Shown here: one piece after another, positions 3,513 through 32,000 of the stretch
How positions within the stretch are numbered: the first letter of the stretch is position 1
How the letters are laid out: each line of letters begins with the position of its first letter
Source: a virus
Strand: one strand, 5' to 3'
DNA: 32,000 nt
IMG/VR virus record: IMGVR_UViG_3300015608_001846
Location: 30,001-62,000 of that record
Notes under the pieces: model-generated
Databases searched by the model: none
The model's input: the letters and a program-made list of their open reading frames with translations, nothing else
Told to the model about the DNA's origin: nothing
Position numbers and translations under genes: made by a program

Positions 3513-3521
3513 TAATGAAAT

Positions 3522-4730
3522 TCAACTTTCGTAGATGTTAACCAGGGGTCGAGGTTGATTAGCTGCCTCGACCTCGTCTGCGAGGCGTCGTGCGACGTCG
3601 TCTTGCCAGGATTCGAGTTGATTGCGCGGTGCATGTGTCTTGAACGACAGAACGTATTCAGCGTAGTACGACCACGAAGCCCCCTGGTCATGATCGATCT
3701 TCGTGAGAGACACGTTCGAGTGCCCAAACAGTTCCTCTGCAGTGCCCAACAAGATGTCATCGAACCCATCTTTGACATCTTGTTCCAGTGGCCCACGTTC
3801 ATTTTTCGAAGCGTCATGACGATAATAGACGTGCACCCTGAATTGGTACTTGACCCTGTTCTTTTTGGGAGGACGCTTGCCTGGAGCGATGGGCTTCCAG
3901 AACGTCGGGGTCATCCAGCGTCCTTCGATCCATCCGGGCATGTCATCAAGTTCGACAGGAAACCAGTCCGTATCGCCCACCTGTTGCAGCTTGTCGCCGA
4001 CGACAAGCAATGAATTGATGTCAACGTGTCCGAGGAGCTCATCGCCTCCAGGCGTTCCGAACAACTTGATCGGCAGGACGTCCTTGCCTGGTCTTAAGAC
4101 CCATGTCGTGCCGGCTTGCATCAATCGAGTGGTTCTCGTATCAAGAATCTTGTTCCTGTATTTCTTGATCGCATCGATGACCTGTGTTGGACTAAGGCTA
4201 CCCCGAGCGATGACGCTCTGGATGTCATGATGCGTCTTGTTTCCTACCGTGCCGACCCTGACCTGATCGACATCAGGATGGTATATGAAAAACTTTCTGT
4301 CTAGATCTCCATCGTTCCAAACGTACGTTTGGTTCTTCAACTGTCTGGGTGTCGAGATCAGATCAAATCCCAAATCTGTCAACAGCGATTCGTACGCTTC
4401 AACGTTGGGATAATTGACCTCACGCAGGATGTCAACAGACTCGTGGACGCTTTTCAGACGATCGTTGGCGCGCCTTGCGCTAGCAAGTTCTGCCCTCAGT
4501 TTGTTTAGCAACCTGGCATAGTTTGCTCGAGCCTCTGACCCTCGACGCTGGCGGTCGCGCCAACGCGTGAGGTCAGCGATCCTGGCCTCGAGGTCCTCGA
4601 TGTGCCTAGGCGATCCGTGAGGAACACGTGAACCGTCAGACACGTGCGTCTCTCTGACCCGCTTGAGTTCTTCGATCCGTTGCTGAACCAAGTCACGGAT
4701 GCACTCTCTGACGATCGTTAACGTGGTCAT
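3522..4730 (-). CDS. hypothetical protein
   Basis: 402 aa. ATG 4730 overlaps the upstream stop (ATGA). It has an Arg/Glu-rich helical N-terminal third (RIEELKRVRE, LRAELASARRANDRLK) and a beta-rich remainder. No family recognised. Confidence 0.7.
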   Translation of the reverse strand: MTTLTIVRECIRDLVQQRIEELKRVRETHVSDGSRVPHGSPRHIEDLEARIADLTRWRDRQRRGSEARANYARLLNKLRAELASARRANDRLKSVHESVDILREVNYPNVEAYESLLTDLGFDLISTPRQLKNQTYVWNDGDLDRKFFIYHPDVDQVRVGTVGNKTHHDIQSVIARGSLSPTQVIDAIKKYRNKILDTRTTRLMQAGTTWVLRPGKDVLPIKLFGTPGGDELLGHVDINSLLVVGDKLQQVGDTDWFPVELDDMPGWIEGRWMTPTFWKPIAPGKRPPKKNRVKYQFRVHVYYRHDASKNERGPLEQDVKDGFDDILLGTAEELFGHSNVSLTKIDHDQGASWSYYAEYVLSFKTHAPRNQLESWQDDVARRLADEVEAANQPRPLVNIYES

Positions 4731-6889: not shown

Positions 6890-7642
6890 TCACAATACGA
6901 TACCGCCGACAACAGCGGCTTCGGTGAAGCTGGAACCATTTGTCCAGATCCTACGATCGCGGTCGATGATCGCAGAGCCGCCCTTCCACGTCAGGTCACG
7001 TTCCTTGCCAACGCGGTTGCTGACGATCAGGTTGGCTCGAGTCTCTTCTACGAGCTCAACCCAAGCTGCGTCGGGGTACGCGTACATCTCGCCCCAGTTG
7101 GTGCACAGTGCAATCGTGTCAACGCTGCCTCGTTTGTAGAAGCGATGACCGGGTCGGTAGAACTGGTACGACTCTCGGTAGCGGTTCATGGCGTCGCGGC
7201 AGACGAGGACGCCTAACCTGCCGGCGGCTGTCAACACGACGGGTGCCAGCTGTTCAGAAGGTTGGGCCCACAGGTTGTCAGCGCCGAACAGGTTGTGCTT
7301 TTGGGCGTTGGCCTCGAGGCCCCGGGGTCCGACGACTGCTGCGGAGTTATAGAGGTTGCCCTCAGTAAGCTCTACGTAACCAAAGACGACGTGGCTGTTG
7401 AACTGCCGTGCGATGGCAGCGAATGCTTGGGTCTGGTAACCATCGCGAGCCTGCGCGCAGGCTACCGCCTCGCGCGGCCCGTGCAGTGCATAGCCGCTAA
7501 GACACAGCTCAGGCAACACGACGACCCGAGCTCCCTTGGCACAGGCCTCAAACGTCAGTTGGAGCGCTGTTGCCATGTTCTGCTCGACCTCAAGCAGGTG
7601 AGGAGCGAACTGGACGGCGGCGACGATGGCGGGTTGTTGCAT
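6890..7642 (-). CDS. carbon-nitrogen hydrolase (nitrilase superfamily)
   Basis: 250 aa from ATG 7642 (TGATG overlap with the upstream stop; track start GTG 7645). The Glu-Lys-Cys triad sits in its usual contexts: VVVLPELCLSGY, AQKHNLFG, RLGVLVCRDAM. Confidence 0.8.
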   Translation of the reverse strand: MQQPAIVAAVQFAPHLLEVEQNMATALQLTFEACAKGARVVVLPELCLSGYALHGPREAVACAQARDGYQTQAFAAIARQFNSHVVFGYVELTEGNLYNSAAVVGPRGLEANAQKHNLFGADNLWAQPSEQLAPVVLTAAGRLGVLVCRDAMNRYRESYQFYRPGHRFYKRGSVDTIALCTNWGEMYAYPDAAWVELVEETRANLIVSNRVGKERDLTWKGGSAIIDRDRRIWTNGSSFTEAAVVGGIVL

Positions 7643-18893: not shown

Positions 18894-20182
18894 AGCCCCA
18901 TGCGTTCCATGGCTGATGTTGTTGTCGACTCAAACGAACAACGCTGACGCACAACGCGTTGCAATGACCTTACATCGTGACGGCTTTGTTCGAGGCCGAC
19001 GTTGTCTAACATGTGACACAACCCATCGACCAAGTCAGAAAAGTCAGGCTTGCACAAAACACCTGGCGTTTGGGCCTCACGAGCGATCGTAGAATATTCG
19101 TAGTTATCGAGCCACAGTGGCATACATCCTAGCTCAACGCATTCTCGAGCAGCGGTACCGCCGTACGAATCCTGATCGTATAGGCCGAGGGCGATGTCGG
19201 CTTCACGAGCGACAACCTTGAATTCATCACGCGTGAACGCATCTGGCACCAGGCTGACGTAACCGTTTGGCCCACACTCTTTGGTGAGTTCTTCGTTGGA
19301 AAACTTCTGGCTGGGGTTGCCAGCGATGACAACAAAGTCCTGTCTCAACTTCCGCAGCTCCGGCAGCAGCTCGAACATGAACTTCCCACAGTTGGTGTAA
19401 TCGCTCGACCTGCCCCTGCCCCCGATGCGGTTGGGAACAAAGATGATGCGCTTGCCTGCGTTCTTCCACTCACGCAGGCGCCCCGGGTCAAACCTGACGT
19501 CGTCGACGACGACCGGAGACGTGATCTCAGTTGCTGAGTACCCGTCGTCCCAAGGCTGTGACTTTTCTGCCACCTCGAGCACGAGGTCAGGGAGGAACTG
19601 GCGTCCCATCGATTGAAAGAAAACATTCATCGATGACTCACACTGCCAGAAGTTGACGTCAGCCTTGATGGCGGCTTCACACTGTCCCAACCACAACGAT
19701 GCTTCAGTCGGAAACTTCGGACACTCTAGATTGTCAATGAAATGGTTGTGAACGATGAACTTGGGCTGGCGCTTCTGCACTACGTGGAACAACGCCTTGA
19801 ACGCACGTAGGTGCATCGGATCATTGATGTACACTGCCGTGTACGGCTCCTGGCCGACCAGTTTGGCCATGGCACGCCAATCAAAGTCGTACCGAGTCAC
19901 CAGCGCATTACTGATGATGTTGTGTGGCCGGTACTGGAGACGCCCGTCACCGTCGGGACCATGCGCATCCCACAATTCTGAATTGATCTGCGCTGGATCA
20001 TTGATCACCTGACGGGGTGCCTCCAACAGCGGTCCAGTGATGTCGATGTGAAGCTCGGGATCGAGTTTCAACATCTCGCGACACCGGTTGATGCACATCT
20101 GCCAACCAGAATCGCATTCAAGTAGAAACTTACCTTTTGTATCGTAGTTCGAGAGCTGCGTCTGCACCAGCATGCGCTTCAT
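18890..20182 (-). CDS. GT-B fold glycosyltransferase-like protein
   Basis: 430 aa. The C-terminal half resembles GT1/GT4 donor-binding domains: IIFVPNRIGGRG, VVIAGNP, ADIALGLYDQDSYGGTAARECVELGCMPL (E-x7-E-like). The N-terminal half is not recognisable. Confidence 0.5.
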   Translation of the reverse strand: MKRMLVQTQLSNYDTKGKFLLECDSGWQMCINRCREMLKLDPELHIDITGPLLEAPRQVINDPAQINSELWDAHGPDGDGRLQYRPHNIISNALVTRYDFDWRAMAKLVGQEPYTAVYINDPMHLRAFKALFHVVQKRQPKFIVHNHFIDNLECPKFPTEASLWLGQCEAAIKADVNFWQCESSMNVFFQSMGRQFLPDLVLEVAEKSQPWDDGYSATEITSPVVVDDVRFDPGRLREWKNAGKRIIFVPNRIGGRGRSSDYTNCGKFMFELLPELRKLRQDFVVIAGNPSQKFSNEELTKECGPNGYVSLVPDAFTRDEFKVVAREADIALGLYDQDSYGGTAARECVELGCMPLWLDNYEYSTIAREAQTPGVLCKPDFSDLVDGLCHMLDNVGLEQSRHDVRSLQRVVRQRCSFESTTTSAMERMGL

Positions 20183-23266: not shown

Positions 23267-23821
23267 TCACTGCACCTGTTCGTAATTCACGTACGTGCCG
23301 TGGCAGCCTGTCCCAACACGTACGTGACCCAAGTGTTCGCAGAAGACCAGGTACTGCGCAGTCTCGTGTTCAATGACGACGATGGTGCCGGTTTCAGTCT
23401 CACCTTTTGCACGAGAAAAGGTGACCTGGTCACCGATGCGGTGCCTTGGCGTCACGTTGTTCGAGCGGACCCAGTCTTTCACGGTCTTGCGGTGGATCGC
23501 ATAGCGTTTGGCAGCCACCTCGCTCATCAGGTCGACAAGCCGAGCGTCGACGGTCCACGTCCGCGACTCAAGCGATCGACAGATCTCATACGCATCATCG
23601 GTGAGTTCAATCGACTCGATCAGGTCAGCTCGGACGTCGCTGATCATCTCCTCATCAAAGACGGTTGAGGCCGAATTGAGCTCAGACTTCAGGTATGCAA
23701 TCACCTTGGGCAACAAGGCCTCGACGGTCTCACGAGAGACCTCGAGGTCAAAAAGCGCTGGACGTTTGGGAGCAATCATGATCGATTTTACCTCGCATGG
23801 CGCGCCATGCACCATGTGCAC
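23267..23821 (-). CDS. hypothetical protein
   Basis: 184 aa from the track start GTG 23821; ATGs at 23815 and 23779. It overlaps the end of the GIY-YIG ORF. No family recognised. Confidence 0.55.
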   Translation of the reverse strand: MHMVHGAPCEVKSIMIAPKRPALFDLEVSRETVEALLPKVIAYLKSELNSASTVFDEEMISDVRADLIESIELTDDAYEICRSLESRTWTVDARLVDLMSEVAAKRYAIHRKTVKDWVRSNNVTPRHRIGDQVTFSRAKGETETGTIVVIEHETAQYLVFCEHLGHVRVGTGCHGTYVNYEQVQ

Positions 23822-24674
23822 ACGACTTGGTTGACAGCGCCAAGCGACCGTCGATGACCCTGTTCACTGTCGATGGTCGTACACCGCACGATGTCGCAAT
23901 TGTTCGCAGATCAACGCCTTGTGCATGCAGCCCCAGGATCTCAATCACCGGAACGACGAACTGTCGACTGTCGTCGTTGGCTATGCACTTGACTGCGTAG
24001 TAAGAAATGTTCCAAGCGTCAGCAACCTGACGCGGACTGTTTCCCAATGACGATAGCTGCGCCTTGACAGATTGAACGTCGGCAGGCACAACGACAACGT
24101 TTGATCTCTTGGAACCTAGGTGAGCCAGTGATCGTCGGCGGCGGGCTTCAGTCGTTCTCATCGATTCGCACATGAGGTCTCTGTTCGAGCGCCACTGCTC
24201 AGAGCACCGTTCGCTTCTGATCGTGCGAAGTTCTGCCGTGTACGAGCTGCCCACCGCACGAGAAAGCGATCGTTTGTACTCAGGTGAAGCACGAACAATT
24301 GTCATGTCGACCTTCGATAGGGACTCCTTTACGCGCCTTGAGATTTTCTGTCGAACCTCGAGCGTCGGCGAGCTACCTCCTAAACCTCCACTCGTTTCAT
24401 TGTAGAGGCGCTCTCCGGCGTCAGAGAGTTGCTCGCACAGCGCCATTTCAAAGGCGAAGGCTGACGGTTCATCGATGAAGCTTTGGACGATCGTCAGGTC
24501 AAAATTGGCACACCCATACGTCATGATCGCACGGTGAAATGTTAACGTCGATCCCTTCATGGCGTCGCGACAGTGTCGACGCCAGCGTCTGTGTGGATGG
24601 ATCGATTTTCCGACGTACTTGTGACCATTCGTCAGATTGGTCACAACGTAGACGAATGCCTCACGTTGTGACAT
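23748..24674 (-). CDS. free-standing GIY-YIG homing endonuclease (Seg/I-TevI-like)
   Basis: 308 aa. GIY-YIG core FVYVVTNLTNGHKYVGKS, RRWRRH, FEMALCE, LYNETSGG. NUMOD3-like repeats (SPTLEVRQKISRRV, SPEYKRSLSRAV) and a C-terminal HTH (GVDLRTIATSCGVRPSTVNRVI). Confidence 0.85.
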   Translation of the reverse strand: MSQREAFVYVVTNLTNGHKYVGKSIHPHRRWRRHCRDAMKGSTLTFHRAIMTYGCANFDLTIVQSFIDEPSAFAFEMALCEQLSDAGERLYNETSGGLGGSSPTLEVRQKISRRVKESLSKVDMTIVRASPEYKRSLSRAVGSSYTAELRTIRSERCSEQWRSNRDLMCESMRTTEARRRRSLAHLGSKRSNVVVVPADVQSVKAQLSSLGNSPRQVADAWNISYYAVKCIANDDSRQFVVPVIEILGLHAQGVDLRTIATSCGVRPSTVNRVIDGRLALSTKSCAHGAWRAMRGKIDHDCSQTSSAF

Positions 24675-25317
24675 CGTTTCTCGTGAAGACAGCGGTGTTT
24701 TTCCTGTAGAAGGAGGCCAGCTTCTTGATCTTTTGAAACGATGACGTCAATGCTTCGTCGTACAAGTAGCCCCTTCCAGTTAGGATCGGCACAACTTCAT
24801 CTTTGCCGCGGCAGTTGTAATGATGACGTCCCCACTGGCCTGGTTCCGCACACGACAGGATCAACGTCTTGGGTTTGAAGGCCAGCAGGTTGTCGATGAA
24901 GGTGGACTCGAACTCCTCAGGGATGTGCTCGTAGACCTCGAGCGACACGACCAGGTCGTATGAACTTTTCGTGTCGAGTTCCGACAGCGGCTTCGTCAGA
25001 TCGTGGCACAAGTAACACTCTGGCGGGATCGCGAGCATCGCCTCCGCGCCAGTCGAAAAATCGATCCCGAGGACCTTCTTTTTCTCGACGAGGGGCACCA
25101 AAAAGTCGCCGCAACCGCAGCCTACATCGACGATCGAATCAAACTGCAGGTTCTGCTCGAGCCACTCAGCGTAGTGCGCGATGCCCTTGTCGTAATACTT
25201 CCGGTGCTTCTCGTAGAAGCCAACATCATACGTTTCCGATTCTTTCTGTGGGTCCCAACCCTTGTAGCGCTTGGACTTGGCAACCTTCTTGACGAGCTTT
25301 TGCGTGTCTTCAGACAT
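24661..25317 (-). CDS. class I SAM-dependent methyltransferase
   Basis: 218 aa. Motif I IVDVGCGCGDF, motif II VLGIDFS, and DLVVSLEVYEHI. No DNA-methyltransferase DPPY or PCQ motif seen. Confidence 0.75.
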   Translation of the reverse strand: MSEDTQKLVKKVAKSKRYKGWDPQKESETYDVGFYEKHRKYYDKGIAHYAEWLEQNLQFDSIVDVGCGCGDFLVPLVEKKKVLGIDFSTGAEAMLAIPPECYLCHDLTKPLSELDTKSSYDLVVSLEVYEHIPEEFESTFIDNLLAFKPKTLILSCAEPGQWGRHHYNCRGKDEVVPILTGRGYLYDEALTSSFQKIKKLASFYRKNTAVFTRNDVTT

Positions 25318-25403
25318 GGTCTGATACTACAACGTATCAACGCGCTAGTTCACAACTGCAGCGCTCTTAGGGCTTCATCGACAACCTGTTAGCTGGGCAG
25401 CCA

Positions 25404-26504
25404 TCACGTTATCTCCTTCACGCGCCACATCGTGGTCGAGAACCCGTAGTCGTTGCGGTCGACCTCGCCCAACACCAGCGCATATGCCGGGAATTCCCGG
25501 ATGCCGTCCCAACCCCACGCATTCATCCGGTACGTCCGACCCTCGGGTCCCTGCACCGTCAACAGGAGGTACTGCTTGCCGTTCTTTGTCTTCTTTGGTT
25601 TGGCCTCCATGATGACAAACCAGTAGATGTCGCGCTTGTCCCAGTCATCGACTGAACGAACGCCCTTCTCTAGGAGGCGATCGATGAGCTCAGGTTCGAC
25701 CATCGTCAACACGTCGAAGCTACCGAAAGCCTCGATCTTGTGCTCAGCAAGCTCCCGGCGCGTCCACTCTTCTTCAAACTCTTCAGCCAACGCACGAGCC
25801 AGCGCATAGAAGTTCTTGCGACCCTCGTGCGGGTCCTTCTTTGATGTCCGTTTGATGAGGGTCGCATGGTCACGGATGCGCTCGACGATCTCGTCGGAAC
25901 CCTTGCGCCTGGGTACCTCCTCGGTATAGGAACCCATCAACGTCTCATGCATGTGCCTGTACGACTTGAAGACCTTGTCAGGACCGACGCACCCTAGAGA
26001 GTCAAAGGCACGGATCTTGATGAGCACCTCGAGCGCCTTGCGGTTGAACTTCGACGGGCGCCAGCTGCCGTCCTCGTTCCACAGCACGTCCTCGATCGAG
26101 GCGTACGGGCGACTGGAGACGATCTCTTCGGCGGCTGTCTGTCCGATTCCCTTGCACGACAGCAGGCTGGGCATCAACCGCTTGCCGGGCAGCACTGTCC
26201 ACCCCAGTCCGGCCTCGTTGATGTCGATGGGTACGATGGTGTAACCTAGCTGCTTCACCTCGCTGAAGGCCTTCGCTTTCTTGTCGGGCGAGTTTGACAT
26301 AGATTCGATGTAGGCTGTGATCCACTGTTCCTCGTGGTACGTCATCAACCAGGCACACCAGAACGAATCGATTGCGTACGCCACTGCGTGGCTGTTCGAC
26401 GTCAACATGCCGTTGGCAAGGTAGAACTGGTGATCTGGATGCTCGACCTCGAGGTCGAACGTCTGGTGTTTACCTACCGGAGTGATTGACTTGATGTTTG
26501 TCAT
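25404..26504 (-). CDS. dnaE: split-intein C-half (b) fused to DNA polymerase III alpha C-terminal piece (fragment 4)
   Basis: 366 aa. It begins MTNIKSITPVGKHQTFDLEVEHPDHQFYLANGMLTSN, then SHAVAYAIDSFWCAWLMTYH (DnaE block KSHaaAYa...lk.hyP). Helix-hairpin-helix-like and OB-fold-like regions follow (KRDIYWFVIMEAKPKKTKNGKQYLLLTVQGPEG). ATGA overlap with the upstream ORF. Confidence 0.85.
   Translation of the reverse strand: MTNIKSITPVGKHQTFDLEVEHPDHQFYLANGMLTSNSHAVAYAIDSFWCAWLMTYHEEQWITAYIESMSNSPDKKAKAFSEVKQLGYTIVPIDINEAGLGWTVLPGKRLMPSLLSCKGIGQTAAEEIVSSRPYASIEDVLWNEDGSWRPSKFNRKALEVLIKIRAFDSLGCVGPDKVFKSYRHMHETLMGSYTEEVPRRKGSDEIVERIRDHATLIKRTSKKDPHEGRKNFYALARALAEEFEEEWTRRELAEHKIEAFGSFDVLTMVEPELIDRLLEKGVRSVDDWDKRDIYWFVIMEAKPKKTKNGKQYLLLTVQGPEGRTYRMNAWGWDGIREFPAYALVLGEVDRNDYGFSTTMWRVKEIT
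26394..26504 (-). mobile_element. split intein b, C-terminal half (37 aa)
   Basis: Blocks F/G: TFDLEVEHPDHQFYLANGMLTSN, followed by +1 Ser. The size and pattern resemble known IntC fragments. The penultimate residue is Ser rather than His. Confidence 0.75.
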
Positions 26505-26770
26505 TTCTTGACGTCTCTGACCAATGCCTCTAGCCTCTTGGATGCCCTGCGTCGTTGGGCCTTGTCACACTGTTCGTCACAGTAATCATCGGAGGGCTCG
26601 AGTTCAACAGCCACAGGAGGGCACCGCAACCTCATCGCGTGCTGCAGAAGCTCGATGGGCGACAGGCCCATCCTGGCAGAGATGTCATTCAGCGCTTCTT
26701 CAAACGAAGGTCGCTGCATAGGCCTCTCCGATTCGATGGACGCCCGGCTTTGGATCGCGCAGGTGTTCAA
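26501..26770 (-). CDS. small hypothetical protein inside intein-b gap
   Basis: 89 aa from the track start; ATG 26719 gives 72 aa (MQRPSFEEALNDISARMGLSPIELLQHAM...). Its stop overlaps the ATG of the IntC-b ORF. Confidence 0.45.
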   Translation of the reverse strand: MNTCAIQSRASIESERPMQRPSFEEALNDISARMGLSPIELLQHAMRLRCPPVAVELEPSDDYCDEQCDKAQRRRASKRLEALVRDVKK

Positions 26771-27737
26771 AGAGCTGTTTCAGGCACTCATCACTGAACT
26801 TGCCACCGTCCTTGTACGAAAACTGGTCGTAGGAGATGCGAATCAACGTCATTTCCTGCTTGACGACAGCTTCATCAAGTTCACGGTCGCGGACCCTCGC
26901 GTTATTTAGCGTTTCATCACCTTTGATGGGTTGGAAGTGGTACTTGCCATCGAACTCAATGATGATGTTCGTGTCCCAATTCGCCAAATCAACCTGCTTT
27001 CGTCGTGATTTAGACGTGATGCACACATCATGCAAGCGTTGATTCTGCTTAAACCCGGCATCGATGCTCATGACAACGTTTGCCAACACAAGCTCGGGCT
27101 TGCTGTGCCACGTTGAGTGCATCGCCTTCACGCACTTTTCATAGAAGACGTCAAAGTTTTCTGTTCGCCAACGCGCGAGGCGTTCAGCGCGGGCAGCCAT
27201 GATTTCCGGCCGTGCCGATGTTCTTTTTGCCGTGTTTCTTGACAGCTGACGTGCTGCTTCAGTCTTGTTATTTGCTGTCATCTGAGCAGATCGACGCGCG
27301 CGTTCTTTTGGATTTGCAAGGATTGCCGCGCTGACCGCTGCTCCCATCTTGGCTTTGTACTCTGTCAGATCATCGCCACGTTCTTTGGCGCGCCTGAGCC
27401 AGGCAAAATTCTGACCACGATTCTTGAATCGAACGCTTGACGTGTCGGACGTCAATTTTGCATCAGGGAATTGCATGACGTAAGTTTCTTTGCTAACGCC
27501 ATGCGTTTGTGTCAGGTGCTTACTGAGCGTCTTTGCTTTCAATCCACACAACCTACAGGTGACACGATCGTCACCTTCTTGCGAGACGCACCCTTCGATG
27601 TGTTTCTGGCACGACGTTTTGTACTTGAAGTTGCGGCCGCATCGTTCACAACGATGCTTAGGTTCCGTTTTTGTATCAACCACAGGGGCAACATCTCCCC
27701 CGTTTCCCTTGTTCGGAACTTGTGATCCCACGTGCAC
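26700..27737 (-). CDS. zinc-finger + Vsr-like nuclease, candidate homing endonuclease (intein b gap)
   Basis: Up to 345 aa. No ATG precedes the first finger; candidate starts are GTG 27737, 27731 or 27683. C2H2-like fingers: CERCGRNFKYKTSCQKHIEGC and CRLCGLKAKTLSKHLTQTH. The C-terminal VDLANWDTNIIIEFDGKYHF...RVRDRELDEAVVKQEMTLIRISY parallels E. coli Vsr PDIVFP..AIFVHGCFWHGH...RDRRD...GWRVLIVWE. Confidence 0.65.
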   Translation of the reverse strand: MHVGSQVPNKGNGGDVAPVVDTKTEPKHRCERCGRNFKYKTSCQKHIEGCVSQEGDDRVTCRLCGLKAKTLSKHLTQTHGVSKETYVMQFPDAKLTSDTSSVRFKNRGQNFAWLRRAKERGDDLTEYKAKMGAAVSAAILANPKERARRSAQMTANNKTEAARQLSRNTAKRTSARPEIMAARAERLARWRTENFDVFYEKCVKAMHSTWHSKPELVLANVVMSIDAGFKQNQRLHDVCITSKSRRKQVDLANWDTNIIIEFDGKYHFQPIKGDETLNNARVRDRELDEAVVKQEMTLIRISYDQFSYKDGGKFSDECLKQLFEHLRDPKPGVHRIGEAYAATFV

Positions 27738-27943
27738 TTTACTTTTTCTCCGGTGTTCAGCTCAACCTCAACCAGATCAAGAACACCATGATCGTGTTTC
27801 GATTTGACAGTGACGATTACGTTTTCACCTGTCTTTTCATCGCGCGTCATGACAAGATCGCCAGCTTCAACGTGCTGAAGCTGTTTGGTTGTGATGACTC
27901 TACCATCCAAATTATAAATATTCACTAGTTCTGAAAAGTGACA
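27539..27943 (-). mobile_element. split intein b, N-terminal half
   Basis: It starts at Cys codon 27941..27943: CHFSELVNIYNLDGRVITTKQL (block A) and TWDHKF (block B, TxxH). About 100 aa look intein-like. A ~30-aa basic tail then runs on to the stop while overlapping the endonuclease ORF in another frame. Confidence 0.75.
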
Positions 27944-28315
27944 GGACTTATTGAACCCATACCCAGCGAAGTAGAGTATCTTGTCGTACAGGTTGTTCGC
28001 GACTGCCTCGGTGTAACCGTTCTTGACGCACCCCTTGACGAAGCCATCACGGGTCTCCTGAGCTGCCTTCTTGGCAGCCTCACCGCCTGAGATGCTGCGC
28101 TTCATGATGGCGCGACGCACTTCGTCGCACTTGTCCTTCGGAAAGCCGGCGACCTTTTCAGCGAGTTCCATCACTTGCTCCTGAAATATTATACAGTTAT
28201 GCACGAGAAGGCCATTTGCGAAGAAGTTGTGGTTCTTCTTGATCTGGATGTCGTACACAAGCTGTGCAGGCGCGCGTTTGATTGCGCGAATCTTGACAGG
28301 AACTACGTCAGGCAT
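27539..28315 (-). CDS. dnaE: split-intein C-half (a) + DNA polymerase III alpha fragment 3 + split-intein N-half (b)
   Basis: 258 aa from ATG 28315 (ATGCCTGA overlap with the upstream stop; alternative ATG 28342, track start TTG 28345). It begins MPDVVPVKIRAIKRAPAQLVYDIQIKKNHNFFANGLLVHN. Then comes CIIFQEQVMELAEKVAGF..VRRAIMK..FAGYGFNKS (DnaE blocks YQEQVM, RRAMGKK, FAgYGFNKS). Then CHFSELVNIYNLDGRV...KCTWDHKF. Confidence 0.85.
   Translation of the reverse strand: MPDVVPVKIRAIKRAPAQLVYDIQIKKNHNFFANGLLVHNCIIFQEQVMELAEKVAGFPKDKCDEVRRAIMKRSISGGEAAKKAAQETRDGFVKGCVKNGYTEAVANNLYDKILYFAGYGFNKSCHFSELVNIYNLDGRVITTKQLQHVEAGDLVMTRDEKTGENVIVTVKSKHDHGVLDLVEVELNTGEKVKCTWDHKFRTRETGEMLPLWLIQKRNLSIVVNDAAATSSTKRRARNTSKGASRKKVTIVSPVGCVD
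28196..28315 (-). mobile_element. split intein a, C-terminal half (40 aa)
   Basis: LVYDIQIKKNHNFFANGLLVHN followed by +1 Cys (codon 28193..28195). Blocks F/G are canonical. Confidence 0.8.
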
Positions 28316-28790
28316 CGTCCACCTCGACAATATCGAACTCATCAAAACAACACACTTCTTGATCGAGCTTGCCGTCTTTCAACCCTTCGAAAAGACCTGA
28401 ACCAGTGCTACGATTGTAGAACATCGCATCATTGTCACGATAGTCGTCAATGAGTTTCACCTCAGTCCCAGCATCGAACCATTCATCGGGACGAGAAATG
28501 TATTTGACACGCTTAATTGGCTGGAGAGTTGCAGATGAAAAGAAGCCTTCAGCCCCATCACGCATCATCTTGACGTGAACAATTCTCTCGTTAAGATGAT
28601 CTGTTTGCAGGCGTTCACCCTCGTCAACTAGCCTGATCACATTGGGACATGCAGTCGTCTTCTCTATCCATAGTGGGTCAAGAGGCGACGGATGGTGTGG
28701 ACACGCACGCCAGTCGTGTTGACGTTGACGCTCGAGCAGGCAAAACACACCTGTCAAGTGCGTGTAACAAACAACGTAATCCCTCATCAT
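28308..28790 (-). CDS. hypothetical protein inside intein-a gap
   Basis: 160 aa. ATGA overlap with the upstream ORF, and its stop overlaps the IntC-a start. No family recognised. Confidence 0.55.
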   Translation of the reverse strand: MMRDYVVCYTHLTGVFCLLERQRQHDWRACPHHPSPLDPLWIEKTTACPNVIRLVDEGERLQTDHLNERIVHVKMMRDGAEGFFSSATLQPIKRVKYISRPDEWFDAGTEVKLIDDYRDNDAMFYNRSTGSGLFEGLKDGKLDQEVCCFDEFDIVEVDDA

Positions 28791-29215
28791 TCACACTCCT
28801 GTTCGCGATGCATTAAGCACGCAGCACATATATCGCGGCCAGGTATTGACGTCCAAAATTGCTCGCGGCAATCAACACACGTTTGAGGCTGGCTCATAAG
28901 CAACTTCGTTGCTACACTGTGTGATGACATAGAACGAGACAACGCATCAGCGTCCAACACAACGCGACACGGGTTGATCTTTGTAGCTAGTGAAGATGCG
29001 CACAGTTGACACACGGGTCCGTGAACGTCAAGCACACGTTGCCCGTGATATTCAAGTTCCATTTCGTTTCCCACTTCCTCGTAAGCCCTGAACGTATCGA
29101 ACCAATCGGCGTACGTAAGGTCATCACGCTTTCCCACTTCAACATGTGACTTCATCGTGTTGATGAAGTTTTGAAATGACGTAAGCAATTCCTTCTCAAA
29201 GTCCTCGATTTTCAT
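28787..29215 (-). CDS. Cys-rich hypothetical protein inside intein-a gap
   Basis: 142 aa. Cys pairs CQLC..C and CVDC...CAAC suggest a zinc ribbon. No family recognised. Confidence 0.55.
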   Translation of the reverse strand: MKIEDFEKELLTSFQNFINTMKSHVEVGKRDDLTYADWFDTFRAYEEVGNEMELEYHGQRVLDVHGPVCQLCASSLATKINPCRVVLDADALSRSMSSHSVATKLLMSQPQTCVDCREQFWTSIPGRDICAACLMHREQECE

Positions 29216-29217
29216 GT

Positions 29218-29958
29218 CTAAATTGTCCTCAATTTGTGTGGGTAGTACAAGGCCTCAGAAGCCCACACTCGCCTGACAATGTAACCTAACATTTCTGCTG
29301 TTCTAGTATATGACTCGTCTAGACGATACTGTCGCTTCATCTTTGGCATCAATTCATGTTTGGTTGAGTTACCATGCCAATAGTCGCCATCAAACTCTAC
29401 GAGAATGTTCTCATTTGGAACGTAAAAATCAAACTCATGATTGATGCCATCAACGCGATGCTTGTGAACGACGTTGTCACCATGTATCTCAATCATCTTT
29501 GTTTTGAATGAAAGTTCAGCTTCAGAATTTCTCTTCCTCGGTTTTTGAGTTTCAAGTCCCGCGCTTGTCTTTCGAGAATGTTCTTCAAAGAACCCTGGCG
29601 TGTGTGATCTCATGTGCCAGGTCAACCCTCGTTGTCGCTTACAAATCTTTCCGCACACTTCACAAACAACAGATTTCTGCTCTTCTGTCGCTGAACAGTA
29701 TGATCGATGCGAACGCAGCGACGTGTTAGATGTGAAAACCTTGCCACACGCATCGCACGGAAATTCCCCTTCTTTCCTGACGTTCTCACGGAGTTTAGCA
29801 ACGTTGAGTTTAGCAACGTGTTCGTCTGTGAACTTTCGACCTTTGTACGTTTGACGACGCCACTCCGACAGGCACCTGATGCTACACGCAACTGAACGAT
29901 CATTTCTTGTTGAGTACGTCTTTCCGCACGTTTGACACTGCTTCTCCAGCTTGCTCAT
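29218..29958 (-). CDS. zinc-finger + Vsr-like nuclease, candidate homing endonuclease (intein a gap)
   Basis: 246 aa from ATG 29958 (track start GTG 30048). Fingers: CQTCGK..C..C, CDACGKVFTSNTSLRSHRSYC and CEVCGKICKRQRGLTWHMRSH. The C-terminal HEFDFYVPNENILVEFDGDYWHGN...RLDESYTRTAEMLGYIVRRVWASE parallels Vsr PDIVFP..IFVHGCFWHGH...RDRRD..L...GWRVLIVWE. Confidence 0.7.
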   Translation of the reverse strand: MSKLEKQCQTCGKTYSTRNDRSVACSIRCLSEWRRQTYKGRKFTDEHVAKLNVAKLRENVRKEGEFPCDACGKVFTSNTSLRSHRSYCSATEEQKSVVCEVCGKICKRQRGLTWHMRSHTPGFFEEHSRKTSAGLETQKPRKRNSEAELSFKTKMIEIHGDNVVHKHRVDGINHEFDFYVPNENILVEFDGDYWHGNSTKHELMPKMKRQYRLDESYTRTAEMLGYIVRRVWASEALYYPHKLRTI

Positions 29959-30280
29959 CTTCCAGCGCTGCTCCTGAAAGATAAGTATAGTCTTTGATCG
30001 ACACAATTTCGTCATCAAGCGTAAGTTGTCCAGCCTCAATCCAGCCACGTTGAGTCATGACGAGGTGATCAGAGGTGAGTTTAATGACACCAATGTCAGT
30101 GTCAAGCTCAATCACGTCTTTCATGCCATTGCATACTGCGGCGACAATTACATCCTGTTCGAGCTCACCAGTCTCTTCATTATACGAAGGAAGCGTGACA
30201 CCGATCATCTGATCGTCAACGATCTCTTTGATCGTGATTTCGCCTTCATCGGTCATGACCTTTGCATCGCCAGTCAAGCA
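29900..30280 (-). mobile_element. split intein a, N-terminal half
   Basis: It starts at Cys codon 30278..30280: CLTGDAKVMTDEG (block A) and LTSDHLV (block B). It is 126 aa to the stop. The last ~20 aa overlap the endonuclease ORF start at 29958. Confidence 0.8.
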
Positions 30281-30637
30281 CGAGTACGTCTTCTTCAGGA
30301 TCTCGTTGATTCGTGGGTCACCCCACTCCAGCTCCTTGCCAGCCCTTGCTTCCAAGTAAAGCTTGTCAACGTTTGCCGCGAGAGGTCCAGGTCGGTAGAT
30401 CGACGTCAGCGTCGCTATGTCAATGATGCTCTTCGGTTTGGCCTTGACGAACAGCCTTTGCGCACCTGAAGAGGTGAGCTGGAAGATGCCTGCCCACTTG
30501 GCCTTTTCATACACCTCATACGGAGATCGGTCGTTGAAGTCGATGACATCGGGAGACATGTGCCGCTCGTACCAGTCCTTGATGTCGGCGAACGTGGGTT
30601 TGCACTTCGAAATGTCAGTGACCTTGGTCGGTTTCAT
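29900..30637 (-). CDS. dnaE: DNA polymerase III alpha fragment 2 + split-intein N-half (a)
   Basis: 245 aa. ATG 30637 has its own AGGAG 3 nt upstream. VIDFNDRSPYEVYEKAKWAGIFQLTSSGAQRL and IATLTSIYRPGPL..ILKKTYS match DnaE blocks (ip.dD..t...l....t.GvFQlES.G, aLyRPGP, eTYG). Then CLTGDAKVMTDEGEITIKEI...IKLTSDHLV. Confidence 0.85.
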   Translation of the reverse strand: MKPTKVTDISKCKPTFADIKDWYERHMSPDVIDFNDRSPYEVYEKAKWAGIFQLTSSGAQRLFVKAKPKSIIDIATLTSIYRPGPLAANVDKLYLEARAGKELEWGDPRINEILKKTYSCLTGDAKVMTDEGEITIKEIVDDQMIGVTLPSYNEETGELEQDVIVAAVCNGMKDVIELDTDIGVIKLTSDHLVMTQRGWIEAGQLTLDDEIVSIKDYTYLSGAALEDEQAGEAVSNVRKDVLNKK

Positions 30638-31655
30638 GGACTCCTACGCTGGACTGTCGATCGGTCCCGTCTGGGTTTGACGATTCATCGATGGGTGCTA
30701 GCCCAGCGGGAGCGTACCGCCAGCGACACCCATCGTACACTCGACTGGCACGGATGATGTTTAGCATCGTCGACTTGCTGATCCCGAGGTGCCTCTGGGC
30801 CGCCGACGCTGAGACGAACACCGCGACGATCGATCCTTCGTCATTGATCTGGTGCACGCACTTCGAGCGGGCCGCCGACAGCAGCGCCTTCGTCTCACCA
30901 GAGAGCCTGCGACCCTTCAACGATCGTGAGATGATCGATCTTGTTTCATCTGAGTGGCCCGGGCGCTCCCGTATGGTCGAGCGCGCCCACGACCGACGAC
31001 CGTCCCCTGGAACCGTTGAGCTCGGGCGACGGCCCGACAGGATCGCAGACATGTGAGCGCGGCTGACGCCCGCTGCGCGAGCAGCATCGGACACGGAATC
31101 GTGCACGGCGACGACATTGCCGTCGAGGTCAAACTCGATGACCTGGGTGCAATTGATTCGACGGTGGTTCTGCTGGCGTTTGGCCCTGACGAGGCCCAAG
31201 CGCTCGATGCGATGGCCTGCGATCTCTTGCGCCTTCCGGCCCGAGCTCGTCGACAGCCTACCGACGATCTCAGCGGCCACGCCGAGGTACTGGGCTGCCG
31301 CTGCCGTCGACTCGAACGTCAATCGATCTCCGGCCGGCGTCCACAGCGCGATGGGCACCCGATTGATCCCCGACAGACCGGCGCCCCCTGTCGTCATGTT
31401 GCTTGCGATGTCTGACGCCAGCGGATCAGCGACGAACGTGTGAAGTTCACTGACCAGCCTCCTCTCCTCGGAAAATGCAAGTTCTTCACTGTCGGTCGAT
31501 ACCACGATGCGCCTGTCCAGGCCCAACGCTGCTGAAATTGCAGCGTGCTTCCTGTTACGTCTGACGTTCAGAACGCGTGACGGGCTTCCTTTGCCCACGT
31601 AGTATGCACGCGGCTGCTCTTCCTTCGTGTAGTCGACATATACGCAGAATTTCAT
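30615..31655 (-). CDS. GIY-YIG homing endonuclease inserted between dnaE fragments 1 and 2
   Basis: 346 aa. ATG 31655 lies in an ATGA overlap with the fragment-1 stop. GIY-YIG core CVYVDYTKEEQPRAYYVGKGS, RRNRKH, EERRLVSE. DNA-binding modules follow: IEFDLDGNVVAVHDSVSDAARAAGVSRAHMSAIL, HSDETRSIISRSLKGRRLSGETKALLSAA (NUMOD3-like) and INDEGSIVAVFVSASAAQRHLGISKSTMLNII. Confidence 0.85.
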   Translation of the reverse strand: MKFCVYVDYTKEEQPRAYYVGKGSPSRVLNVRRNRKHAAISAALGLDRRIVVSTDSEELAFSEERRLVSELHTFVADPLASDIASNMTTGGAGLSGINRVPIALWTPAGDRLTFESTAAAAQYLGVAAEIVGRLSTSSGRKAQEIAGHRIERLGLVRAKRQQNHRRINCTQVIEFDLDGNVVAVHDSVSDAARAAGVSRAHMSAILSGRRPSSTVPGDGRRSWARSTIRERPGHSDETRSIISRSLKGRRLSGETKALLSAARSKCVHQINDEGSIVAVFVSASAAQRHLGISKSTMLNIIRASRVYDGCRWRYAPAGLAPIDESSNPDGTDRQSSVGVHETDQGH

Positions 31656-32000
31656 CGATGTTCAAGCGGAAATCGGAGATCATCATCGACGGTCACAGCA
31701 GCTACAGCCTTCCAGGATCCGTCCTCGAGCATGACTTCTGCGGTGCTCTTCAACCTATGCACCTCGCCTGAAAGCTCGATCTCAACAAGTCCGACCTGTC
31801 TTTCTTTTTGGATGATGAGTTCGATTGTCCGCTCAATGAGTCGCAAAGTTTCTAGACCCAGTAGGTCGTATTTGATGAAATTGCCGATGTACTCGAGGTG
31901 CTTGAAGTTGACGCCCTCGACCCAGGGCGACTGTGGTTCGCCGCCGGAACAGATCAGTGGCATCTTCGACGGCAGGTCATCGCAGATGAGGACACCGCCG
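31652..32000 (-). CDS. dnaE: DNA polymerase III alpha fragment 1 (5' part lies beyond the window end)
   Basis: The frame is open to position 31999: GGVLICDDLPSKMPLICSGGEPQSPWVEGVNFKHLEYIGNFIKYDLLGLETLRLIERTIELI parallels E. coli HAGGVVIAP..APLY......[28 protein letters not shown]. A 49-aa non-DnaE tail follows before the stop at 31652. Confidence 0.8.
   Translation of the reverse strand, partial: GGVLICDDLPSKMPLICSGGEPQSPWVEGVNFKHLEYIGNFIKYDLLGLETLRLIERTIELIIQKERQVGLVEIELSGEVHRLKSTAEVMLEDGSWKAVAAVTVDDDLRFPLEHR

Follow-up and report, generated by a model that had tools for sequence, protein, structure and literature searches.

Two zinc-finger nucleases of probable Vsr-like fold, lodged between the halves of two split inteins in a viral dnaE, are likely homing endonucleases

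In 2009, Dassa, London, Stoddard and Pietrokovski described a free-standing Vsr-like endonuclease gene lying between the halves of a split intein, at loci that include DnaE-1 to DnaE-3 (PMC2677866). Phage genes are also split without inteins by free-standing endonucleases, as in the case of mobE in nrdA of Aeh1 and of a GIY-YIG gene in gp43 of Aeromonas phage 25 (PMC2677866). The composite catalytic motif of one Vsr-related homing endonuclease, I-Bth0305I, consists of E170, D196, N208, H213 and D222 (PMC3239194), and an extra conserved acidic residue occupies the position of Vsr Phe62 in its family, EDxHD (Taylor et al. 2011, PMC3239194). As DNA-binding parts, the 2009 and 2011 papers name NUMOD and helix-turn-helix (HTH) motifs only (PMC2677866, PMC3239194), and our literature search found no paper describing zinc fingers in that role in EDxHD enzymes. 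Vsr-like endonuclease genes have also been reported in antisense within contiguous inteins of actinophages, in a 2025 preprint that likewise classes them as EDxHD through the structure 3r3p. The present work concerns a window of 32,000 nucleotides (nt), bases 30001-62000 of the 150.8-kb IMG/VR viral contig IMGVR_UViG_3300015608_001846, in which dnaE is interrupted by two such nuclease genes. At this length the contig is 45% complete (CheckV), and its source is therefore a very large (jumbo) phage. A first-pass annotation of the window, made from its letters alone, had drawn attention to these genes and named the EDxHD family, which does exist (Taylor et al. 2011, PMC3239194; PDB 3r3p).

In the region 25404-32000 of the window, on the minus strand, dnaE is broken by two split inteins, and each of the two gaps contains a nuclease open reading frame (ORF), nuc1 in gap 1 and nuc2 in gap 2 (Table 1). 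We hold with good confidence that both are free-standing Vsr-like (EDxHD) homing endonuclease genes lodged in the mini-intein loop positions in the dnaE of a large uncultured phage. Each mini-intein would now be encoded as an N-terminal (IntN) and a C-terminal (IntC) half around a nuclease gene, i.e., as a ‘fractured gene’. Recognition of a long DNA site would fall to the N-terminal zinc modules and a NUMOD-like (or helical) region, and cleavage of that site to the C-terminal Vsr-fold domain, by means of the residues E...D...(E)xD...H...D. The most likely targets would be intein-free dnaE alleles in related phages, around KKTY(S/T)|CIIFQEQ for nuc1 and around GYGFNK|SHAVAYA for nuc2. Once such a gene is cut, repair templated by the occupied allele would bring in the whole unit of IntN, nuclease and IntC, whilst trans-splicing of the intein halves would keep DnaE functional. 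Expression of the nucleases would be woven into that of dnaE, the nuc2 GTG being drawn from the Leu88-Trp89 codons of IntN2 and the nuc1 AUG being sequestered in a hairpin of its own cassette. We regard the locus as a further, well-documented instance of the fractured gene first described in 2009, and not as a new kind of system.

The layout is indeed that of a fractured gene: dnaE is interrupted, IntN and IntC stand on separate co-linear ORFs, and an endonuclease ORF lies between them on the same strand. For comparison, proteins of each nuclease family were traced to their source contigs (loci labelled L0xx). The exteins are collinear with the uninterrupted dnaE frames of L015 and L018 (1,199-1,234 amino acids, aa), and the C-terminal extein, which begins SHAVAYA, is likewise collinear with intact dnaE genes; the latter read ...TRG|LLVFQES... 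at site 1 and ...GYGFNR|(A/S)HA... at site 2. Both inteins have their splicing residues (Cys1...HN|Cys+1 in intein 1, Ser1 with SN|S in intein 2), and trans-splicing by the halves would be expected to rebuild DnaE. The terminus of IntC2 is Ser-Asn instead of the usual His-Asn, which is common to L011 (TSN|S) and hence conserved in this intein lineage. After GYGFN(K/R), an S or T followed by C or L is found in the window, L011 and L028; intein 2 therefore most likely starts at Ser1, and the spliced product most likely reads GYGFNK-SHAVAYA. The junction first proposed for site 2, GFNKS/SHAVAY, is accordingly most likely off by one residue, comparison with relatives placing it at GFNK|SHAVAY. Past their functional parts, the IntN frames run on into tails of 30 residues in IntN1 (97-126) and 33 in IntN2 (103-135), neither of which is conserved in relatives; a junk-like run-on of 20-30 residues had been noticed beforehand.

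A Vsr-like fold with aligned catalytic residues in the nuclease domains of both ORFs is supported by predicted structures and by sequence profiles. In Foldseek searches of the PDB, the best match of each AlphaFold model is Vsr (1cw0_A), with E=1.3e-3, probability 1.00 and a target-based template-modelling (TM) score, TMt, of 0.47 for nuc1, and E=2.1e-3, probability 1.00 and TMt 0.58 for nuc2; nuc1 also matches the catalytic domain of I-Bth0305I (3r3p_B, probability 1.00, TMt 0.55). The nuclease domains are modelled with a pLDDT (predicted local distance difference test) of about 54-92 in nuc1, where one loop has low confidence, and about 92-98 in nuc2. A merged profile (A5), built from an alignment of the nuc1 family, the nuc2 family and their paralogues in the same phage, reached only five PDB sequences at E<0.5, namely 1cw0 (4.8e-4), 1vsr, 1odg, 3hrl (1.3e-3) and 3r3p (4.4e-3). 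In the HMMER alignment of A5, the invariant Asp corresponds to Vsr D51 and I-Bth0305I D196, the histidine of WH/YH to H69 and H213, and a later Asp to D97 and D222; the glutamate of S-x-x-E corresponds to I-Bth0305I E170, and the Glu of (V/I)EFDG falls at the Vsr Phe62 position. The resulting catalytic candidates are E148, D177, D190, H195 and D214, plus E188, in nuc1, and E197, D232, D245, H249 and D266, plus E243, in nuc2 (counted from GTG 27683); they are invariant in 14 nuc1 relatives and 26 nuc2 relatives, and both enzymes are predicted to be catalytically active. The motif parallels to Vsr that had been picked out by eye (DFYVP, VEFDGDYWH and RRVW in nuc1, and their nuc2 equivalents) fall in the HMMER columns of Vsr D51, H69 and the strand after D97. 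The zinc-site motif GCxWHxHxC is absent: nuc1 has DGDYWHGN at this place and nuc2 has DGKYHFQP, both of which lack a Cys and a second His. Both ORFs are matched by PHROG families under the label ‘homing endonuclease’, and four family members bear the name ‘very-short-patch-repair endonuclease’ given by the Joint Genome Institute (JGI). The two nucleases share about 16% identity in their cores (hhalign E=2.3e-4), so that the term paralogous, as originally applied to them, holds at the superfamily level but not in the sense of close paralogues.

The combination of zinc fingers with a C-terminal nuclease domain, which the first-pass annotation had proposed for both ORFs, was borne out by Pfam, the structural models, Foldseek and A5. 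In nuc1, the fingers are matched by Pfam zf-C2H2 (E=1.4e-11) and zf-C2H2_6 (9e-8) and align with ZNF568 and CTCF-type fingers in the PDB; the model (mean pLDDT 78) has a Cys4 ribbon at residues 8-29 and beta-beta-alpha fingers at 66-88 and 97-119. In nuc2 (mean pLDDT 87), a C2HC finger lies upstream of a zinc module matched by Pfam ROS_MUCR (E=8.4e-6, 26.3 bits against a cut-off of 25.4).

The start of nuc2 probably lies within the intein. The first-pass annotation had found no ATG before the first finger and left a choice between GTG and another route, to which comparison of five loci (the window, L011, L014, L019 and L021) gives GTG 27683 as the answer. At the Leu-Trp codons of IntN2 (CTN|TGG), there is a GTG in the window, L014 and L021, and an ATG in L011 and L019. 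In L011, a stop in the nuclease frame stands just upstream of this point, and therefore only a start at the CTN|TGG position is possible there; the N-terminus reads MVDSK in L011 and VVDTK in the window. Up to the end of IntN2, substitutions are distributed over intein codon positions 1/2/3 as 18/9/41 and 29/10/36, a bias towards third positions that is gone past this end (41/59/46). Because the start codon is conserved in the five loci, L011 has its stop, and the substitutions upstream follow the intein frame, nuc2 most likely starts at GTG 27683, across intein codons 88/89 (Leu88-Trp89). This is residue 19 of the ORF as first listed; it lies 43 nt inside functional IntN2, within the last conserved block of that half, produces an overlap of 145 nt with the IntN2 ORF, and has a GGAG 11 nt upstream, made from intein Gly-Glu codons. 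GTG 27737 was rejected as the start: the N-terminus ‘MHxGSQVQ’ is intein block B (CTWDHKF) in the -1 frame, and the substitutions follow the intein frame. Gene callers assign this same N-terminus to nuc2 relatives. A hairpin at the nuc2 start was not consistent across loci (z = -0.4, 0.3, -3.0 and -0.1).

The start of nuc1 is of a different making. It begins at ATG 29958, and all 11 full-length relatives (245-251 aa) begin at the equivalent place. The ATG falls in IntN1 codon 108, inside the unconserved tail, with an overlap of 59 nt with the IntN1 ORF; the earlier statement that the nucleases open about 105 residues into IntN thus describes nuc1, which starts past functional IntN, but not nuc2, which starts within functional IntN2. 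The RNA hairpin at this start has the AUG in its 3′ arm and AGGAG at the top of the stem, folds at -17.2 kcal/mol (z=-2.66, with 0 of 200 shuffles as stable), and is kept, with one compensatory pair, in L022, L026 and L027. IntN1 and nuc1 are separated in L027 by three other ORFs, and the hairpin still directly precedes nuc1; since it stays with nuc1 away from IntN1, it belongs to the nuclease cassette, and it may have a regulatory role. One of these three ORFs is HNH-like. The IntN1 tail in the window is evidently the leader of the nuc1 cassette read in the intein frame, in line with the suggestion of Dassa et al. (2009) that the upstream gene receives its stop from the invading element (PMC2677866).

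The distribution of the nucleases among related dnaE loci bears on their targets. Relatives of nuc1 always lie in gap 1 and relatives of nuc2 in gap 2, even where extein 3 is down to 37% identity (L022), and the same nuclease lineage occupies the same dnaE site in L011, L014, L019, L021, L022, L024, L026, L027, L045 and L051; the split-intein layout with a nuclease between the halves is also present in L011, L022 and L024. Of 80 IMG/VR dnaE loci surveyed, 78 were scorable at site 1, which is empty in 75 and filled, with a split intein and a nuc1-family ORF, in L045, L046 and L051. Site 2 is empty in 79 of the 80, and L041 has there a contiguous mini-intein of 128 aa. Site 1 is filled and site 2 empty in L027, L045, L046 and L051, whilst in one empty allele, L029, the extein 2 protein is 98% identical to that of the window. 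This presence/absence polymorphism points to the empty dnaE sites as the probable targets. The L041 mini-intein (about 7240-7630) is inserted at GYGFN|C, one codon off site 2, and is collinear with IntN2+IntC2 through the point at which these are split (31% identity, E 7e-14). In L028, IntN2 continues in frame into a nuclease of the nuc2 family, and neither IntC2 nor a C-terminal part of dnaE was found in the 4 kb downstream; the locus is a single metagenome contig, where an assembly error is possible. The fusion is part of one ORF of 779 aa (L028 4001-6340, P0052), in which site 1 is empty and a third dnaE site (IFQ|C) is occupied by a contiguous mini-intein. The empty, contiguous-intein, fractured and in-frame-fusion states are together those of the Dassa model, whatever the order of events. 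The suggestion of the first-pass annotation that a nuclease invading a contiguous intein caused the split is made plausible by the collinear mini-intein of L041; the change may have run either way, as invasion or as nuclease loss.

The gaps themselves vary in content. L024 has homologues of the gap 1 passengers, orf142 (86% identical) and orf160 (89% identical), both of which are absent from L011, L022 and L026; the passenger ORF of gap 2 recurs with 40% identity at the equivalent place in L014, but L019 and L021 do not have it. It would appear that split-intein gaps behave as landing pads. In L024 itself, a different ORF of 294 aa follows IntN1. Upstream of orf142/orf160, and of a second, complete IntC1-extein 2-IntN2 gene, this locus also has a relic ORF (3230-3769, P0012) in which IntC1 and the first 60 residues of extein 2 are fused to the last 86 residues of a nuc1-type nuclease; the relic is a partial duplication or recombination scar in gap 1.

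Several observations weigh against our interpretation of nuc1 and nuc2 as homing endonucleases of Vsr-like fold. Searches with single sequences or standard models did not detect the fold: phmmer of the single C-terminal domains against the PDB gave nothing relevant for either nuclease, hmmscan of the domains against Pfam gave MTES_1575 as the sole match (nuc1, E=0.011), and, in searches restricted to the phage's own genome, neither Pfam Vsr (PF03852, E<=10) nor DUF559 (PF04480) matched either ORF. Of the single-family profiles, that of nuc1 (A1) found in the PDB the DUF559 structure 3hrl, at E=0.13, and that of nuc2 (A2) nothing relevant. The hidden Markov model (HMM) comparison that the first-pass annotation had suggested thus gave a divided answer, the Pfam Vsr/DUF559 models missing both ORFs and the merged profile reaching the chains of Vsr, DUF559 and I-Bth0305I. 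Part of the Vsr match of A5 may be due to a single paralogue in it whose Vsr motif is near-canonical; the Foldseek E-values are modest (about 1e-3), with TM-scores of 0.47-0.58, and hhalign relates the two families with a probability of only 44%. Also, the GGAG-to-GTG spacing of nuc2 is long, and the closest empty allele found, L029, has a DNA identity of 82% in extein 2, so that no recent homing event is documented. Comparison with L029 gave no clear signal of a co-conversion tract, the identity in the flanking exteins being 69-70%.

A competing explanation is that the nucleases leave empty dnaE sites uncut and act on DNA that encodes a contiguous, nuclease-free mini-intein, or on a site close by, and that only the nuclease cassette moves, into inteins that already exist. 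This would be step II of the Dassa model, or ‘intronless homing’ as in free-standing phage endonucleases, and the route was proposed in PMC2677866. In its favour, a contiguous mini-intein homologous to intein 2 does exist in L041, the nuc1 cassette with its own hairpin and AUG is separable from IntN1 in L027, and the gap 1 cassette has turned over in L024 and L027. However, all sampled alleles that are occupied at sites 1 and 2 carry the nuclease with both intein halves, except L041, with its offset of one codon, and L028, which has no IntC2 within 4 kb, and no nuclease-free intein was found at exactly these sites in about 95 loci. Moreover, the start and first 11 codons of nuc2 are made of intein sequence, which argues for long co-inheritance with the intein. 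On balance, we regard movement of the cassette alone as unlikely.

Homing endonucleases commonly decay after fixation of their element, and the nuclease domains could in principle be inactive, the proteins persisting as zinc-finger DNA-binding regulators or as spacers that give stop, start and coupling signals. The tight coupling of the gap genes is in keeping with this, as the ORFs could be kept for expression of the downstream IntC, and no recent pair of empty and occupied alleles was found. Yet the five catalytic positions and the extra acidic residue are intact, and do not vary even in relatives of about 40% identity; neither ORF is truncated, and the whole length is conserved in large families (157 clusters at E<=1e-30 for nuc2). 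Loss of activity hence seems improbable. That nuc2 is made as an IntN2-nuclease fusion by -1 ribosomal frameshifting, i.e., as part of a bifunctional split intein, we reject as very improbable, for even if the nuc2 frame, which is -1 relative to that of IntN2, is open from block B on, and the fusion in L028 means that such proteins are tolerated in nature, there is no in-phase X_XXY_YYZ slippery heptamer in either IntN ORF, ATG or GTG is conserved at the start position in the five loci, L011 has its upstream stop in the nuclease frame, and the substitutions upstream of the start follow the intein frame.

A more speculative step would be to view nuc1 and nuc2 as natural modular zinc-finger nucleases, in which a variable string of zinc modules sets the length and specificity of the target, and whose expression is tied to translation of the polymerase fragments. 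We offer this tentatively. Orthologues that occupy one and the same dnaE site differ in how many zinc modules they have. There is one Cys4 ribbon in nuc1 of the window, and up to about five elsewhere, the orthologues in L011 (4522-5376), L045 (5913-6893) and L051 (6010-6915) having three to five; the two C2H2 fingers and the nuclease domain are retained in all three in spite of this change. As for the tie to dnaE translation, nuc2 would take both its start codon and its Shine-Dalgarno sequence from conserved intein codons, whilst the hairpin over the nuc1 AUG would be opened by ribosomes finishing IntN1.

The two genes are not isolated in their genome, nor in viral data at large. Their own contig has at least 9 ORFs with a Vsr-like nuclease domain, nuc1 and nuc2 included. 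A2 reaches the paralogue at 145950-146699 with 9e-11, and that paralogue is above the Pfam DUF559 cut-off (146103-146309, 21.1 bits); A1 reaches the one at 119629-121359 with 6e-6, an ORF that the Pfam Vsr model also touches. The nuclease families are thereby linked through paralogues, which speaks for the Vsr-like assignment. Several of the paralogues have C2H2 or Ros-type fingers or NUMOD-like repeats as well; the one at 92691-93722 has a near-canonical Vsr motif (GCMWHAHDC ... VVVWECEW), and that at 149440-150762 is a fusion with a DNA methylase-like domain. Among 1.84 billion representatives, the full-length nuc2 profile matched 157 clusters (50% identity) at E<=1e-30 and 3,193 at E<=1e-3, and the nuc2 model had 92 matches in BFVD at E<=1e-3, under names which include ‘Homing endonuclease’, ‘C2H2-type zinc finger’, ‘Treble clef zinc finger domain-containing protein’, ‘ROS/MUCR...’ and ‘DUF559’. 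Proteins combining zinc fingers with a Vsr-like nuclease are widespread in viral data and mostly unstudied.

Table 1. Features of the interrupted dnaE region, in window positions, and nuclease paralogues elsewhere on the contig, in genome coordinates
Feature	Position	Strand	Remarks
dnaE piece, running past the window end	31652-31999	-	
GIY-YIG/NUMOD endonuclease gene	30615-31655	-	
dnaE finger-domain extein + IntN1 ORF	29900-30637	-	Pfam DNA_pol3_finger 8e-21
dnaE finger extein 1	30281-30637	-	extein/intein boundary by comparison with intact dnaE of L015/L018
IntN1	Cys1 30278-30280; functional part to ~29993; tail 29903-29992; stop 29900-29902	-	
RNA hairpin at nuc1 start	29954-29985	-	12-bp stem, 8-nt loop
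nuc1	29218-29958	-	246 aa, ATG start
nuc1 Cys4 zinc ribbon	29872-29937	-	model
nuc1 NUMOD3-like stretch	within nuc1	-	
nuc1 two C2H2/C2HC fingers	29602-29763	-	Pfam, model
nuc1 Vsr-like nuclease domain (predicted)	~29221-29541	-	fold, profile
Passenger orf142, Cys-rich	28787-29215	-	no family match
Passenger orf160	28308-28790	-	no family match
IntC1 + 83-aa extein 2 + IntN2 ORF	27539-28315	-	Pfam Intein_splicing 1.4e-12, DNA_pol3_finger 1.2e-8
IntC1	28196-28315	-	40 aa, ATG 28315
Extein 2	27947-28195	-	83 aa
IntN2	Ser1 27944-27946; functional part to ~27641; tail 27542-27640; stop 27539-27541	-	
nuc2	26700-27683 (open frame 26700-27737)	-	327 aa counted from GTG 27683
nuc2 C2HC + Ros/MucR-type fingers	~27468-27656	-	
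nuc2 helical array	within nuc2	-	~110 aa
nuc2 Vsr-like nuclease domain (predicted) + C-terminal extension	~26703-27116	-	
Small passenger ORF, gap 2	26501-26719	-	72 aa from ATG 26719; no family match
IntC2 + dnaE C-terminal extein ORF	25404-26504	-	Pfam HHH_6 1.2e-10
IntC2	26394-26504	-	37 aa, ending TSN
Nuclease paralogues (genome coordinates)	19116-20024; 119629-121359	+	
Nuclease paralogues (genome coordinates)	92691-93722; 116770-118116; 131695-132612; 145950-146699; 149440-150762	-	

Every gap gene abuts or overlaps its neighbours. The final 8 nt of orf160 overlap the IntC1 ATG (ATGCCTGA), and the gap 2 passenger overlaps the 3′ end of nuc2 by 20 nt and the IntC2 ATG by 4 nt (ATGA); for this passenger, the ATG start was used in place of TTG 26770, from which the ORF list had counted 89 aa. 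A blastn search of window positions 25000-32000 against 50,697 phage records gave no match. At 30615-31999, dnaE has a further break, without an intein, which is filled by the GIY-YIG/NUMOD gene (Pfam NUMOD1 1.6e-7, I-HmuI_NUMOD-like 4e-7). The intact dnaE genes of L015 and L030 are continuous across this point, and in the window the upstream dnaE piece is longer by about 49 residues at its C-terminus and the downstream piece by about 12 at its N-terminus; L027 has a decayed GIY-YIG remnant at the same position. Vsr-like nuclease ORFs lie upstream of the extein 1 ORF in L041 and L039, and another GIY-YIG homing endonuclease gene is found at 23748-24674 of the window, 0.7 kb past the end of dnaE (PHROG 314 2.9e-20; PHROG 7168 9e-14).

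In conclusion, nothing here overturns current understanding; what the locus offers is a clean, complete fractured gene, for which occupied, half-occupied, contiguous-intein and empty alleles can all be compared. It adds two candidate EDxHD homing enzymes with predicted targets to a family of which one member, I-Bth0305I, has been characterised so far, and in which zinc fingers seem commonly used for DNA binding, a natural counterpart of engineered zinc-finger nucleases. It is also a case in which a homing endonuclease gene probably shares its start region with functional intein codons. The contiguous mini-intein of L041 and the in-frame fusion of L028 bear on the origin of bifunctional inteins, and the two split inteins within one protein may be an orthogonal pair, of use as parts in protein engineering. 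Were the modular zinc-finger reading true, there would be compact Vsr-fold cleavage domains already adapted to zinc-finger targeting, and a case of an intein and a nuclease sharing codons.

How does the locus stand to the known systems? By their published description, the loci of Dassa et al. have in common with it a phage-type gene of DNA metabolism (dnaE) that is broken by a split intein, a gap filled by a co-linear ORF for a Vsr-like endonuclease, a hairpin where that ORF starts, an IntC start that overlaps the upstream gene, and an intein-less fracture by a GIY-YIG gene within the same gene. The present locus differs in having two units, with two nuclease subfamilies, 1.3 kb apart in one gene, and passenger ORFs in the gaps; its DNA-binding parts are zinc fingers and not the NUMOD motifs of that paper, and nuc2 appears to start inside conserved IntN sequence and not in DNA brought by the invader. 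In the intein-less splits of Aeh1 (mobE) and Aeromonas phage 25, an essential replication gene is likewise interrupted by a selfish nuclease gene, the start of which has a translational hairpin; the gene halves join there non-covalently, whereas the split inteins described here should ligate them. E. coli Vsr (1cw0/1vsr; PF03852) shares with the predicted domains the core fold and the equivalents of Asp51, His69 and Asp97, and is the top structural match of both models. Unlike it, nuc1 and nuc2 do not have the Cys and extra His of GCxWHxHxC, a motif region which contributes zinc ligands in Vsr (PMC2677866) and is kept by the Vsr-like paralogue of the same phage; they also have large N-terminal parts with zinc fingers, and they stand in the context of a mobile element and not of repair. 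Like I-Bth0305I, finally, they combine an N-terminal DNA-binding region with a C-terminal domain of predicted Vsr fold. The E, D, x, H and D of this domain align with those of I-Bth0305I, as does the further acidic residue in the place of Vsr Phe62, and the similarity of sequence is seen through profiles only (E 4.4e-3). That enzyme is found in a recA group I intron and binds DNA through NUMOD/HTH motifs (PMC3239194), whereas the N-terminal regions of the two dnaE nucleases are of another type, Cys4 ribbon and C2H2 in nuc1, C2HC and Ros/MucR in nuc2, the latter with a helical array of about 110 aa and an added C-terminal extension.

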